From contig JAHDQN010000005.1 of NCBI GenBank assembly GCA_018433775.1, positions 10,272-74,271 of the forward strand: a stretch of DNA of 64,000 nucleotides. The letters are read 5' to 3'. This document shows, one piece after another, positions 1,000 to 5,504 of this stretch. The notes under the pieces were generated by a model. The model made no database searches, was not told the DNA's origin, and saw nothing but the letters and a program-made list of their open reading frames with translations. The DNA is from Deltaproteobacteria bacterium (GTDB lineage Bacteria > Desulfobacterota > Desulfomonilia > UBA1062). Numbering within the stretch: the stretch's first letter is position 1; each line of letters opens with the position of its first letter. The position numbers and the translations under genes were made by a program.

Positions 1000-1403
1000 T
1001 CGTAAGCACCTTTCATACCTACCCGGGCCGGCCCGGAAGAGGGAAGACAGTGCAGCGGCCCATGAACAGGTGCGATGAATGTTCGAGTGTTTCCTGACAG
1101 CCGCTGGGCTCGATCCCCCGGGCCGGAACGGTTGGTTTCTTTTAGGAAAAAGCCGCGGCTTTTCCAAAAAAAGGATGTTCCTCTGTTCCTGGCTTGGGGA
1201 CAGGTTCCATTAGCGGCTGTTTTTCATTCCCGTGCTCTCCAGATATGAAGGATTCTAAAAGGATGCATACTTCATTCAGACCGTGACTGTCAACATCTGC
1301 CCGGCGAGACCAAAGCCGCATCTCAAGAAAACAGAAGGCCGTGGCTTGCATCAAACGCAGATCCACCTCCTTCTTGAACCGGTCGATTCTCTCTGACAGG
1401 AAA

Positions 1404-1444
1404 GTTGACAATAAAACGAATAATGAGTTGACAACAGGTTGACG
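1404..1444 (+). promoter_or_regulatory. Triad of GTTGACA boxes (GTTGACA 1404-1410, GTTGACA 1427-1433, GTTGACG 1438-1444) immediately upstream of the HTH-ATPase-STAS gene; candidate operator and/or -35 elements
   Basis: Read directly in the sequence. The three boxes sit at offsets 0, +23 and +34, the same as the second triad at 2470-2510. The ATG at 1456 lies 12 nt downstream. Confidence 0.5.
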
Positions 1445-1455
1445 ATAGATACTAT

Positions 1456-2481
1456 GTGCATATGATATCAAGGGAAGAAGTGCTTTATTTTATCAAGATG
1501 AACAAGTCTGTAAACGGGCACGATGTCGCCGGACATTTTGGAATCTCCCGGCAGGCAGCCAACAAACATATCAAGGCGCTGCTGATCGAGGGGAAGATCA
1601 TAAAGGAAGGCGTTACCAGGGGCGCACGGTACAAGCCGGCCGATGCAGCCGGCAGGGCGGCGCGATCACGGGGCATTCAAAGAAAATATGCATTGAGCGG
1701 CCTTGAGGAGCATGAGACATTCAGCCGGATATCAACCCTGCTCAATCTTGAAAACAGCGTAAGCAACGCTGCGTATACAATCATCAGGCACGCATTTACC
1801 GAGATGCTCAACAATGCGATCGATCATTCACTGTCAGAGTCCTGCGTTGTCCATTTTGAGCTTGATCAGTACGAATGCAGCTTCACTGTCCGGGATTTCG
1901 GCATCGGCATCTTTCACTCCATCTGCACGAAAATCGGCCTTAAGGATGAACATGATGCGCTCGGCCAGCTCCTGAAAGGGAAAACCACGACCATGGAGGA
2001 GCGGCATTCCGGCGAGGGCGTTTTTTTCACCTCCAAGGCCGGCGACCGGATGTCCATCAGATCACATCGCATAAGGATCGAATTTGACAATGTCCGGAGA
2101 GACGTCATTGTTGAAGAAAAGCGTTTCATCAAAGGGACAGAGATATTCTTCTCTATTTCCAGGCGCTCAAGGCGGGATCTCTCCGCCATTTTCAGGGAGT
2201 ACTCACCTGAAATGTTCGATTTCCGGTTCGAGAAAACCAGGGTGCGCGTCAACCTGACAATAAAGGAGCTTGTCTCACGATCCGAGGCCAAGCGGCTCCT
2301 GTTCGGCCTTCACAAATTCCGGGAAATCGTTCTGGATTTCAGAAAGGTAAAGACCATAGGGCAGGGGTTCGCCGATGAGATATTCCGCGTCTTTCCCAGG
2401 GAAAACCCGGGAACGGTCATAAAACCCGTGAATGAGAACCAGGTCATAGCGCAGATGATCAGGCACGTGGTTGACAAATAA
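1456..2481 (+). CDS. Fusion protein: N-terminal winged-helix HTH + GHKL (RsbW/anti-sigma-kinase-like) ATPase + C-terminal STAS-like (DUF4325-like) domain
   Basis: The HTH region is GHDVAGHFGISRQAANKHIKALLIEGKI. The GHKL N-box is FTEMLNNAIDHS, the G1 box is VRDFGIGIF and the G2-like box is GEGVFF. The C-terminal stretch ...LDFRKVKTIGQGFADEIFRVF resembles a STAS/anti-sigma-antagonist fold. An alternative ATG exists at 1462. Confidence 0.65.
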   Translation: MHMISREEVLYFIKMNKSVNGHDVAGHFGISRQAANKHIKALLIEGKIIKEGVTRGARYKPADAAGRAARSRGIQRKYALSGLEEHETFSRISTLLNLENSVSNAAYTIIRHAFTEMLNNAIDHSLSESCVVHFELDQYECSFTVRDFGIGIFHSICTKIGLKDEHDALGQLLKGKTTTMEERHSGEGVFFTSKAGDRMSIRSHRIRIEFDNVRRDVIVEEKRFIKGTEIFFSISRRSRRDLSAIFREYSPEMFDFRFEKTRVRVNLTIKELVSRSEAKRLLFGLHKFREIVLDFRKVKTIGQGFADEIFRVFPRENPGTVIKPVNENQVIAQMIRHVVDK

Positions 2482-2510
2482 TGTTTGGACAGGTTGACAA
2501 TCGGTTGACA
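2470..2510 (+). promoter_or_regulatory. Second triad of GTTGACA boxes (2470-2476, 2493-2499, 2504-2510) overlapping the stop codon of the HTH-ATPase-STAS gene
   Basis: Three perfect GTTGACA heptamers sit at offsets 0/+23/+34. This is the same geometry as the upstream triad at 1404-1444. The TAA stop (2479-2481) lies inside the module. Confidence 0.5.
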
Positions 2511-2734
2511 AGAAGGTTCGAGGGAAAGATGACGTCAGGACCAAGAAGGGGATGCTTTCCCCGCACCCTCTTAAGCGGTACCGGAAACCGGCGACCGCTT
2601 CCCGGGTGATCGGATCTGAAGGCCCGGCCATGAGTGTGAGCGGACAATCAGTGGTATGAATTTTCAACGGCAAACCCTGGCCTTTCCCCGGCAAGCTCCA
2701 GGGGAATCAGCCCCGCCCTTTTAACTACACGGTG

Positions 2735-2846
2735 TCGTAAGTGCGCAAGCGAAATATCCAAGCAACCAAAGAGTGATTTTTGGCTGCGGGATAGCGGTTC
2801 TGTTCACTCAGTACCTGCTGCCGTAAGTGCGCATACGAAAATCAAG
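2735..2846. repeat. Two ~26-bp direct repeats (CGTAAGTGCGCA[A/T][G/A]CGAAA[T/A]AT-CAAGCA) at 2735-2760 and 2821-2846 inside a ~460-bp non-coding stretch
   Basis: tCGTAAGTGCGCAagCGAAATATCCAAGCA aligns with cCGTAAGTGCGCAtaCGAAAATCAAGCA. There are only two copies and they are not CRISPR-like. Confidence 0.45.
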
Positions 2847-2945
2847 CAGTCGTAGGGCGTTTTATTGACTGCATGATTGTGATTGCGGAAACTTAATCCT
2901 CAAGTAGAGAAGGCGAATGAGTATTGATGTCATAAGGGCGCTTTT

Positions 2946-3143
2946 TTATGAGCCAGGCTCGTGCGCCTTCCTGCCGTAGACACGCTCGTATGCCCTGCAG
3001 AACGGGCACAGGCCGTCCTCGATGGACTTGACGAACCAGAAGGCAAAGCCCTTCTGCTCGGCCCTTGCCCGGCGGCATACCGGGCACTCGACGCACCGTT
3101 GCGCCATCTTCCTGTCCCTTTCGCTGACTGCTGCCGGTTTCAT
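2946..3143 (-). CDS. Small zinc-ribbon protein (65 aa, two CxxC pairs)
   Basis: Internal ATG at comp 3143 is preceded by AGGAGG about 8 nt upstream on the reverse strand. Translation is MKPAAVSERDRKMAQRCVECPVCRRARAEQKGFAFWFVKSIEDGLCPFCRAYERVYGRKAHEPGS. The longer 114-aa ORF extension lacks an RBS. Confidence 0.5.
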   Translation of the reverse strand: MKPAAVSERDRKMAQRCVECPVCRRARAEQKGFAFWFVKSIEDGLCPFCRAYERVYGRKAHEPGS

Positions 3144-3389
3144 TCCCTGACCTCCTTTTCTCTTCCACTGTGGGGAAGAGACACGTACACACACTGTATC
3201 CGGATACGGACCACGAATGGCCTGTGGAGCAACCCCCGCAGGGATATCCTTCCAGGTCCGCTTTGGATGACTAAGAAGGTGGAACCACATCCCCCTTCGA
3301 TAGTGCGGCGTGATGCCGGACCGAAGGGCTCGCCCTCTCAGAAACCCATGCCGCTGATCGATGCCGTATAAATAATAACGGCCCGGCGG

Positions 3390-5504
3390 CTAGAAGGAAT
3401 GCTTCCCGGTCGAGATGCCCATGGCCTTCATCTTCTCATAGAGCCACGACCGGCTGATGCCGAGGATTCTGGCCGCCTGGGCCTTGTTCCCCCGGGCCTG
3501 CTCCAGTGCCTGGAGCACGATCTCCCGTTCGTGGTCTTCCCGGCTGGACTTAAGCATCCGCCGCCCCGGCGGGGATTCGGGCCTTGCGGGGGCGTGGCGG
3601 GCTCTCTCGCGCAGGTACCGGGGCAGGTCGTGCCTTTCGATGACAGCGCCCCGGGCGAAGTTGATGCCCCGCTCGATCACGTTCTCCAGCTCGCGGACAT
3701 TGCCCGGCCAGTCGTGGTCGAAGAAGATCTCCCGCACCTCTGCCGACACGTTCCGGATGCCGGTCCCGAAGATGCGGTTGTACTTGTCCAGGAAATACTG
3801 CACCAGCAGGTCGATGTCCCGGCAGCGCTCCCTCAGCGGAGGGATGTGCAGGTGGATGACGTTGAGCCGGTAGAAGAGGTCGGGACGGAACCGCCCCTGC
3901 ATCACCAGCTCCTCGATGTCCTGGTTGGTGGCTGCGATGAACCGGGCATCGACCCTCTGGGGCGTGTTCGATCCGATGGGCTCGAAGCACTTGTCCTGGA
4001 TCACCCGAAGGAGCTTGCCCTGCAGCGTCAGGGGCAGGTCCCCGATCTCGTCCAGGAAAAGCGTGCCGCCGTCGGCCATGGCGAGCTTGCCTTTTTTGCC
4101 GGAGCGGCTGGCACCCGTGAACGCGCCGGGTGCATAGCCGAAAAACTCCGACTCCATGAGGCTGTCGGGAATGGCGGCGCAGTTCACCTTGACGAGCGGG
4201 CCCGTGCGGTAGCCGCTGCCGTGGTGGATGGCCTGGGCGATGAGCTCTTTGCCCGTGCCGCTCTCGCCGGTGATGAGGATGTTCGAGGTGCCCCGCGACA
4301 CGATCCCGGCCTCGTCGATGATCTGCCGAAAGGCCGGGTCAGCGGTGACGATCTGATGGAATCCGTCTCCGGGCTCGGTCTCCTCTGGCCCGGACCGGGC
4401 GGAGCCCGCGATCTCCCGGTCGACGTGCGCGAGCTTCCGGGCCAGCTCCTTGATCTCGTCGAGGTTCCTAAACAGAATCTTGCCCACGGCCCCCACCACC
4501 TGTCCTTTCCGGATGATGGGCAGGGAGGACACCACATAGGGGGTGCCTGCGATGAACTGCAGCCGGTTCATCTCGGGCACTCCGGTCCTGATGACCTTCA
4601 TGATCCGGGTGTTCTCGATGACCTCCTCCACGGGCCTGCCCAGGATGTGGTTCTCGTCCCTCCTCAGGAAGCGCTCCGCCGCCTGGTTTGCCATGGATAT
4701 CAGGCCCTGTTCGTCCACCACGATGATCCCGTCATAGGCGAGGTCCATCACCGACTGCAGGGTCCGGTAGAGCTTGGTGACGCTCTCCAGTTCGGTGATG
4801 ATGCGCACCAGGTCGGTCACGTCCTGGAACACGATGATGGCGCCCGTGATCTCCCCCTCACGGGTGATGGGGGTGATGTTGCACAGGAGGCTCATGTCCT
4901 GGCCGGTGTAGAGATATCCCACCGAGGGCCGGCCGCCGATCAGTACCTCGTCGAGCTTCAGCCCGGGCAGGAGGGATTCGGCCCGCATGCCCCCGGCCCG
5001 CTCCTGTGTGGTGGAGAGGATCTTCTCCGCGGCCCTGTTGAGATTGACGACGGTGCTGTTCGTATCGAGGACCAGCAGGCCGTTGTACATGGTCTGCAGG
5101 ATCGCGTTGAGCTCGCTGTTGATCTGGGTTTCGCGCCTGAGCATGGCCATGATCAGGCCCGTCTTGGTGAAGATTCCCGTGATCTCCTGATCGTCGTTCA
5201 CCACGACCGCATTGCCGGCCCTGCTCGTACGGACGATCTCCCGCACCTCTTCATAGGGAAGGTTCTCGTTGAGCATCAGGATGTCGGCAGTGAAGAGGCC
5301 GCGTATGGGCGTGTCCGGCAGTGCGCCTTTCGCCAGTGCATCGAAGAGGTTTGCCTTGGTCATGATGCCGATGAGCCGGCCTTTCCCTCTCTCGACCGGA
5401 AGGGCCTCCAGATGTGTCTCCCGGAAGAGCCGGGCCACGGTGCGAAGATCGTCCTCCGGCTTCAGCCTCCGGAAGGAGCAGGTCATCATATCCTTCAGAA
5501 ACAT
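3390..5504 (-). CDS. Sigma-54-dependent transcriptional activator (enhancer-binding protein) with a CBS pair, PAS domains, an AAA+ sigma-54 interaction domain and a Fis-type HTH
   Basis: CBS-like N-terminus (..GIMTKANLFDALAKG.., ..NAVVVNDDQEITGIFTKTGL..). PAS region. AAA+ Walker A GESGTGKELIAQAIHH and GAFTGA motif. C-terminal ARILGISRSWLYEKMKAMGI. The start is taken at ATG comp 5504 (MFLKDMM...). The track's 5516 start is a TTG. Confidence 0.85.
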   Translation of the reverse strand: MFLKDMMTCSFRRLKPEDDLRTVARLFRETHLEALPVERGKGRLIGIMTKANLFDALAKGALPDTPIRGLFTADILMLNENLPYEEVREIVRTSRAGNAVVVNDDQEITGIFTKTGLIMAMLRRETQINSELNAILQTMYNGLLVLDTNSTVVNLNRAAEKILSTTQERAGGMRAESLLPGLKLDEVLIGGRPSVGYLYTGQDMSLLCNITPITREGEITGAIIVFQDVTDLVRIITELESVTKLYRTLQSVMDLAYDGIIVVDEQGLISMANQAAERFLRRDENHILGRPVEEVIENTRIMKVIRTGVPEMNRLQFIAGTPYVVSSLPIIRKGQVVGAVGKILFRNLDEIKELARKLAHVDREIAGSARSGPEETEPGDGFHQIVTADPAFRQIIDEAGIVSRGTSNILITGESGTGKELIAQAIHHGSGYRTGPLVKVNCAAIPDSLMESEFFGYAPGAFTGASRSGKKGKLAMADGGTLFLDEIGDLPLTLQGKLLRVIQDKCFEPIGSNTPQRVDARFIAATNQDIEELVMQGRFRPDLFYRLNVIHLHIPPLRERCRDIDLLVQYFLDKYNRIFGTGIRNVSAEVREIFFDHDWPGNVRELENVIERGINFARGAVIERHDLPRYLRERARHAPARPESPPGRRMLKSSREDHEREIVLQALEQARGNKAQAARILGISRSWLYEKMKAMGISTGKHSF

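Follow-up and report, generated by a model that had tools for sequence, protein, structure and literature searches.

Paired three-box GTTGACA modules accompany a widespread family of HTH-ATPase-STAS genes and may act as operator arrays of the encoded proteins

What reads a set of promoter-like boxes that is placed at both ends of one gene? The question is raised by a 64,000-nucleotide (nt) stretch of DNA from Deltaproteobacteria bacterium (assembly GCA_018433775.1, contig JAHDQN010000005.1, positions 10,272 to 74,271; hereafter the window), in which two triads of the heptamer GTTGACA flank a gene for a protein combining a winged helix-turn-helix (wHTH), a GHKL ATPase and a STAS-like domain. 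A reading of the sequence alone (hereafter the original prediction) had ascribed the triads to cooperative binding or looping by a regulator, most economically the bracketed protein itself. We analyzed the triads in the window, in a large set of genomes and around homologues of the gene. The results reveal a 41-bp module that is typically kept in two copies per gene, and they favor an interpretation in which the modules are operator arrays of the encoded protein.

The promoter-proximal module of the window comprises box U1 (GTTGACA, 1404–1410), located 58 nt 5′ of the start codon, an A+T-rich spacer of 16 nt (ATAAAACGAATAATGA, 1411–1426), box U2 (GTTGACA, 1427–1433) and box U3 (GTTGACG, 1438–1444). 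In the 3′ module, box D1 (GTTGACA, 2470–2476) is followed by a spacer (2477–2492) and by boxes D2 (GTTGACA, 2493–2499) and D3 (GTTGACA, 2504–2510). All six boxes and both spacers lie on the + strand, and in each module the boxes follow one another at 23 and 11 bp, which confirms every box and spacing of the original prediction. Neither GTTGACA (7 observed versus 4.2 expected) nor GTTGAC (23 versus 22.5) is enriched on its own in the window, and five of its seven heptamers sit in two 41-bp stretches. With up to three mismatches allowed, the 40-nt pattern GTTGACA-N16-GTTGACA-N4-GTTGAC has just two matches in the window, at 1404 and 2470, and none in any of 100 dinucleotide shuffles. A relaxed three-box scan of both strands of the 64 kb, requiring at least 17 of 21 matches (a threshold that gives one false match per 778 kb of shuffled DNA), yielded no module besides these two. 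The twin triads are real and not due to chance, as had been supposed. Similarity between the two copies is limited to the module of about 41 bp, since the flanks past box 3 score 0.36 within a locus versus 0.34 between loci in permutations; we therefore rejected the idea that the second module is the remnant of a tandem gene duplication. A resemblance past box 3 (ATGA..TCA..AAGAAG) is confined to the window and its closest relative, which is 94% identical (L105). Separately, the seventh GTTGACA of the window is inverted (1288–1294, − strand), lies 110 bp upstream of the promoter module and is present in a second close relative (L001) too.

Do these modules belong to the gene? A DNA-first scan for GTTGAC-N17/18-GTTGACAA-N3-GTTGAC was run on 185,579 species-representative genomes (596 Gb), for which about two chance matches are expected by calculation assuming equal base frequencies, versus at least 119 stretches with at least 142 copies found. 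Among the 142 copies listed, 66 lie just upstream of a homologue of the window gene and 37 on the 3′ end of one (together 73%), 16 could not be judged because a block edge is too near, and the other 23 are solitary. The triad is not, in other words, strewn at background frequency without positional bias. In a sample taken from the protein side, metagenomes supplied 61 full-length homologues (down to 44% identity) with sufficient flank, and 57 of them have a proximal module whose box 1 lies at about −57 to −61 relative to the start codon; the four homologues lacking it are in, or branch near, a clade with altered boxes that is considered below. Both modules are kept in the syntenic relative L001, which is 90% identical, and in a homologue from a WOR-3 bacterium with 55% identity and entirely different neighbors, as well as in further homologues from Desulfatiglandales and Cloacimonadota. 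The expectation that orthologues carry the triads is thereby borne out. All gene-carrying loci in the sample come from metagenome-assembled genomes, and no gene neighborhood is conserved across clades, only among close relatives of the window. The hosts of gene and modules belong to at least 15 phylum-level lineages, a breadth at which cis-regulatory DNA is rarely recognizable and over which the 41-bp array, its offset from the start codon and its duplication are kept. On the evidence of these genomes, the module is a hallmark of the gene family that it flanks. Two further observations concern the distribution of the gene. Two paralogues, 50% and 51% identical to the window protein (L020 and L033), share one 23-kb contig (CAYHGV010000043.1), each with its own modules; and in three Desulfatiglandales loci (L008–L010, 1338–3101), representing one clade only, some 900 bp separate the gene from rpoD, which encodes the primary sigma factor and lies upstream of it.

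The number of modules per gene was established on 115 distinct full-length genes with adequate flanks. The proximal module is joined by a module on the stop codon in 70 of them and by a second upstream module in 28, no module was detected in four, and none of the 115 has both a 3′ and an upstream second module. The bracketing emphasized by the original prediction accordingly holds in the window but is not essential, since the second module of other clades lies about 65 bp upstream; the invariant is two modules per gene. That the two positions never co-occur suggests that the second array plays one role in both. In a neighbor-joining tree of the proteins the two architectures are largely clade-specific, with a few switches. 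Proximal and 3′ modules are most often 1066 bp apart (range 1046–1132, n = 89) and tandem modules most often 65 bp, the tandem distances clustering at 54–56, 64–67 and 74–76 bp, in steps of about 10–11 bp. This apparent phasing (Rayleigh R of about 0.7) reflects few independent events, since the clusters largely follow clades. Identical box 2–3 linkers in the two copies occur in 18 of 74 loci versus 8.9 expected, an excess that is partly phylogenetic, and concerted evolution of the two copies, which we considered as a candidate process, is by this count only modest.

Across the family the module consensus reads GTTGACAATAAAATT.A.A...GGTTGACAATa.GTTGACAAT, and the putative operators consist of TTGACAAT direct repeats at offsets 0, 23 and 34. 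Most modules have spacings of 23 + 11 bp and many others of 24 + 11 bp, with a box 2–3 step of 11 bp in nearly all. The box 1–2 spacer (family consensus AATAAAATT.A.A) may hold a degenerate fourth box on a lattice of about 11.5 bp. One locus (L152, 300–390) has an upstream module grown to five boxes, with TTGACAATTAG occurring four times before the last box.

The proximal module also has the geometry of a promoter. In the window, the TTGACA of box U2 (1428–1433) is the predicted −35 hexamer, a spacer of 16 nt containing box U3 separates it from a predicted −10 hexamer, TACTAT (1450–1455, + strand), and the ATG follows 6 nt further on; the unit can be laid out as box 1, 16 nt, box 2 (−35), 4 nt, box 3, about 5 nt, −10, 6 nt, ATG. 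The surmise that an upstream copy doubles as a promoter element is supported by this arrangement, which recurs in other phyla. Defining a −10 by at least four of six matches including A2 and T6, we located one 16–18 nt past box 2 in 53 of 129 proximal modules, most commonly as TATAAT, versus 2 of 86 3′-end modules and 3 of 31 distal modules. Box D2 of the window has no −10 after it either, and the 3′ module was rejected as a promoter, as had been argued for the downstream copies. Where a −10 is clear (56 distinct family promoters), the ATG begins 5–7 nt past it in 43 and at exactly 6 nt in 35, from many phyla, as in the window. Because the ATG is so close to the −10, the mRNA is predicted to be leaderless, which suggests a start at 1462 in the window. 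With a consensus promoter and a leaderless start, the unit would be independent of host-specific signals, which fits its wide distribution, and for the same reason the promoter should work in E. coli.

The 3′ module overlaps coding sequence, and its codons can therefore be asked whether the DNA itself is constrained. Box D1 (GTT GAC A) spans codons V337 and D338 and the first base of K339, and the adjoining spacer takes in the last two bases of the K339 codon (2477–2478) and the stop codon TAA (2479–2481), which places D1 inside the last codons and D2 and D3 outside the open-reading frame (ORF). Among genes with a 3′ module, the terminal valine codon is GTT in 50 of 50 and the aspartate codon GAC in 60 of 60, with no synonymous variants; at other invariant aspartates, by comparison, the GAT:GAC ratio ranges from about 2:1 to 1:1, and all four codons occur at invariant valines. 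In clades without the 3′ module the C-terminal VDNK is absent altogether. Because GTT GAC is fixed, and because VDNK is absent where the module is, box D1 is selected at the DNA level, and these codons provide a clear example of a regulatory site constraining coding sequence.

The same data bear on whether RNA polymerase, and not the encoded protein, reads the boxes, which would then be promoter architecture made of clustered −35-like hexamers and a UP-like A+T tract. TTGACA is the −35 consensus, box 2 stands exactly at −35, variant boxes (TTTACA, TTGCGA/TTGCTA) remain −35-like, and the box 1–2 spacer is A+T-rich in the manner of a UP element. Yet the 3′-end and distal modules retain three boxes while a −10 follows so few of them, the triad is tied to one gene family and not to strong promoters in general, and a promoter role gives no cause for the fixed terminal GTT GAC. 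Moreover, the middle box of the altered-box clade reads CTTGCnAAT in both modules, including the promoter-less distal one, in 10 of the 13 loci read; since the change occurs in a module without a promoter as well, it argues for a shared reader other than RNA polymerase. We consider it unlikely that promoter function alone accounts for the triads.

Modules found away from the gene are informative in a different way. The original prediction envisaged that the pattern, searched genome-wide, would define a regulon, but none emerged: the window holds only its two modules, and solitary modules, a minority, have no −10 and precede heterogeneous ORFs (glycosyltransferase-like, helicase-like and thiolase-like by reading of the sequences), with no gene recurring after them. 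Three loci look like relics of gene loss. A locus from a closely related Cloacimonadota genome (L093, 1–700) lacks the gene of its counterpart L011 (3475–5100) but keeps one module, and its 99.8% identity to L011 begins exactly at the module; on the upstream side the two are only 90% identical and an unrelated stretch of about 350 bp intervenes. Two further loci, L078 (738–900) and L050 (in whose own orientation the module is at 4833), have the module fused to the last 50 or so codons of the gene (IGQGFADEIF...), as would be left by internal deletion. Direct repeats on both flanks would promote such gene loss, which we take as a consequence of the repeats and not as their purpose.

A stronger claim can be made from these relics, namely that the direct repeats delimit a gene cassette that moves or recombines and that solitary modules are scars of gene loss. 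It would suit the junction of L093 with L011, the fusions in L050 and L078, the lack of a −10 at solitary modules, as expected of an upstream/3′ recombinant, and the occurrence of the family across phyla at 45–60% identity among unrelated neighbors. Several findings render it improbable. In 28 of the 115 genes both modules are on one side and therefore cannot delimit a cassette; the window and related loci showed neither a recombinase or transposase nor inverted repeats or a target duplication, the repeats being direct; tblastn returned no homologue in 72,556 plasmids or 50,697 phage genomes; the upstream flank of L093 is not a clean junction; and repeat-mediated loss can be a side effect of operator duplication. 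Six pattern matches in viral contigs, examined as candidates, were discarded as coding sequence or unrelated 12-bp arrays. Among other repeats encountered, an IMG/VR contig (L217, 3800–3960, reverse) carries 12-bp GGTTGACAAnnT repeats in a long, iteron-like array that is unrelated to the modules and has no gene of the family in its vicinity, and two Dehalococcoidia loci (L038, 1170–1240; L081, 1975–2020) carry tandem copies of GTTGACAAAC type past the end of an integrase-like ORF, likewise unrelated to the family.

The position of the 3′ module admits two further explanations. It could be the operator of a downstream gene, its bracketing of the regulator gene being incidental, in the way that CapS, a regulator discussed below, binds downstream of its own gene at the promoter of the operon that follows (Chambers et al., EMBO J 2026, PMC13373217). 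Some loci do have a co-directional ORF starting 60–150 bp past the module, and a few solitary modules stand just ahead of ORFs (e.g. L071/L072, L064/L095). This explanation is difficult to reconcile with the near absence of a −10 after 3′ modules, with next genes that are convergent in 29 loci and co-directional in 14 according to a crude ORF analysis, with a next ORF in the window (2946–3140) on the opposite strand, and with the fact that no downstream gene family recurs across clades, and we give it little credence. Alternatively, the 3′ array might be a protein roadblock to read-through or convergent transcription that does not communicate with the promoter array. The array does coincide precisely with the ORF's end, and a convergent gene often comes next. 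In other clades, though, the second array is upstream of the promoter, where it could not block read-through, and two locations that never co-occur point to one shared role; a roadblock is, on this showing, very unlikely.

What kind of protein would read the modules? The window gene (1462–2481, + strand) encodes 339 residues plus a stop, its start being fixed at ATG 1462 by alignment, and comprises a wHTH (approximately residues 1–60, nt 1462–1641), a SpoIIAB-like GHKL ATPase (residues ~70–235, nt 1669–2166) and a DUF4325/STAS-like domain (residues ~258–339, nt 2233–2478), all on the + strand. Pfam assigns DUF4325 (STAS-like) with an E-value of 1.2e-12, HATPase_c_2 and HATPase_c below threshold, and several winged-HTH families, the HTH scoring as HTH_11, MarR or BirA-like. 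NCBIfam and PADLOC assigned no family to the protein, and sequence and profile searches of the PDB returned weak wHTH matches only. An AlphaFold2 model built from 30 homologues (mean predicted local distance difference test, pLDDT, of 76.5) has SpoIIAB as its top Foldseek match in the PDB (E-value 4e-6; target-normalized template modeling score 0.62–0.67), followed by UsfX and RsbW, and its C-terminal domain matches RsbS and RsbV. In 115 family sequences the N, G1 and G2 ATP-binding motifs are invariant, and E114, N117, N118, D145-x-G147-x-G149 and G184-E-G186 are invariant or nearly so. Residue 298, the candidate for the STAS phospho-acceptor position by secondary-structure order and not by residue-level superposition, is serine or threonine in 74 of the 115 (T298 in the window protein), and the N-terminus of its helix is an invariant G-Q-G-F. 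Two serines, S272 and S274, are invariant. The candidates examined formed 6766 clusters at 90% identity (E-value at most 1e-3), and an exhaustive search gave 866 clusters at 50% identity (E-value at most 1e-30), nearly all of about 340 residues and aligned end to end. No description of the family or the motif was found in the searchable literature, where DUF4325 is mentioned only in passing and the motif string retrieves primers and tac/trp-type promoters only. An uncharacterized DUF4325 family of at least this many clusters at 50% identity thereby gains a concrete, testable DNA target.

The reading that we consider probable, though well short of certain, is that the triads are operator arrays of the encoded protein, combining autorepression by promoter occlusion with a required auxiliary operator. 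It builds on what is established here about the conservation, position, number and orientation of the modules, their constraint at the DNA level, the promoter geometry and the domain folds. A protein bound head-to-tail on TTGACAAT repeats, at intervals of about one and about two helical turns, would mask the −35 together with the spacer and so shut its own promoter. The second, promoter-less array would act as an auxiliary operator, raising occupancy through protein-protein contacts between arrays, by way of a loop of about 1.07 kb in the clade of the window or, in the tandem clades, of a phased array some 65 bp upstream. The GHKL and STAS domains would presumably switch DNA binding or oligomerization in response to some signal, by analogy with CapK/CapS.

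A number of points weigh against this reading. Each of its functional steps is a matter of deduction: we infer that the encoded protein is the binder and the repressor, that the arrays communicate and that the ATPase and STAS domains have the roles given above. Since the box is the sigma-70 −35 consensus, RNA polymerase could account for some of the conservation seen at box 2. Thirteen of the 115 genes have a proximal module alone at the threshold used, and clade-level counts are not phylogenetically independent. In the G+C-rich clades no −10 is recognizable past box 2, which limits a secure promoter assignment to the A+T-rich members. A comparison of recognition-helix residues with the box variants revealed no simple rule linking the two. 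Of the solitary modules, about 15 are canonical and lack a homologue within 1.1 kb; these could be either relics or additional targets (the remaining solitary pattern matches are unrelated repeats or coding sequence). Finally, the usual STAS phospho-acceptor is not conserved, and switching of the CapK/CapS kind is for that reason not simply transferable.

The operator-array reading can be extended to a more specific and more speculative model, which we put forward tentatively and rate as doubtful. In this model gene and modules form a portable autoregulatory unit that does not depend on its host, having a consensus −35, a leaderless ATG and operators of its own; three protein dimers would pair the two triads, alike in spacing and orientation, box for box, so that the loop encloses the gene or, in the tandem architecture, wraps a turn of about 65 bp; ATP and the STAS domain would open and close the loop; the 3′ operator would be dual-coded with the C-terminus; and solitary modules would be scars of gene loss by recombination between the two arrays. 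It is possible, too, that a regulator with an anti-sigma fold which reads the −35 consensus competes directly with sigma region 4.

Some features of the surroundings deserve mention in their own right. Past the 3′ module lies a non-coding stretch of 430 bp that holds two copies of a unit of about 86 bp (core CGTAAGTGCGCA, at 2726–2754 and 2812–2840, within 2700–2890). The unit is a small repeat of variable copy number, with two copies in the window, one in L105 and none in L001, and it has no Rfam match. An Rfam scan of 1000–3400 at E-values up to 1 returned no match, and hence no known RNA in the flanks. The ORF at 2946–3140 (− strand), which converges on the regulator gene, is small (about 65 residues) and Cys-rich, with CxxC motifs; its counterpart in the syntenic L001 is called as a 65-residue gene and has no Pfam match.

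Known systems offer partial precedents. In phage lambda, two three-operator arrays (OR and OL) bracket the gene for the CI repressor, one of them overlapping its own promoter, and looping between OR and OL over about 2.4 kb tightens autoregulation. The paired three-site arrays around a repressor gene are the point of likeness. CI, however, is an unrelated HTH protein with near-palindromic operators of 17 bp and promoters in both arrays, and looping, demonstrated for lambda, is at present only conjectured for the window family. LacI, GalR and DeoR combine a main operator at the promoter with an auxiliary operator upstream or in coding sequence, as exemplified by lac O3 at −82 and O2 at +401 within lacZ. 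The family resembles them in that its primary operator would overlap the promoter, box 2 being the −35 and box 3 lying in the spacer, and in that a second array of the same sequence is present away from it (at the 3′ end in 70 and upstream in 28 of the 115 genes), with a −10 in just 2% and 10% of such modules, respectively. It differs in having three-box direct-repeat arrays and one auxiliary position per gene, versus single palindromes bound by a tetramer. The alternation between 65 bp upstream and 1.07 kb downstream provides a natural comparison for the evolution of operator placement.

For the arrangement of the boxes themselves, there is a parallel with PhoB and PhoP, winged-helix proteins of the OmpR family that bind head-to-tail on direct repeats with 11-bp periodicity in the −35 region; the PhoP repeats of B. 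subtilis are TT(A/T/C)ACA. The direct repeats of the window family share this one-turn/two-turn geometry, but PhoB and PhoP are response-regulator activators with a receiver domain and neither GHKL nor STAS domains. The SpoIIAB-SpoIIAA and RsbW-RsbV pairs supply the best structural matches to the middle and C-terminal domains; these, by contrast, are separate proteins, devoid of a DNA-binding domain, through which a sigma factor is controlled, and no sigma partner is evident for the window family.

The closest characterized system is CapK/CapS, which regulates anti-phage operons (Chambers et al., EMBO J 2026, PMC13373217). CapK is a GHKL kinase that is switched on by single-stranded DNA and phosphorylates the STAS domain of CapS; CapS is a STAS-wHTH autorepressor that binds a site on either side of its own gene, further copies of it bind cooperatively along DNA, and the downstream site is the promoter of the adjacent immune operon (PMC13373217). 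The window protein is likewise made up of an anti-sigma-type GHKL kinase domain, a STAS domain and a winged HTH. There are, nonetheless, consistent differences. CapK and CapS are encoded by two genes (HTH-STAS-GHKL, then STAS-wHTH), whereas the window family has a single wHTH-GHKL-STAS polypeptide of uniform length, about 340 residues. CapS sites are palindromic TTAA half-sites, as opposed to triads of TTGACAAT direct repeats. The downstream CapS site promotes an immune operon, while the second array of the window family has neither a −10 nor a conserved neighbor. The phospho-acceptor of CapS, a serine or threonine at the start of STAS helix 2, is absolutely conserved and has no conserved counterpart here. 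Nor does the window family lie upstream of an immune operon: its neighbors differ by clade, with no PADLOC defense match. The family is CapK/CapS-like in outline but not a member of that system, and it extends the kinase-STAS-HTH logic known from CapK and CapS to a form that is fused, stands alone and lies outside defense islands.

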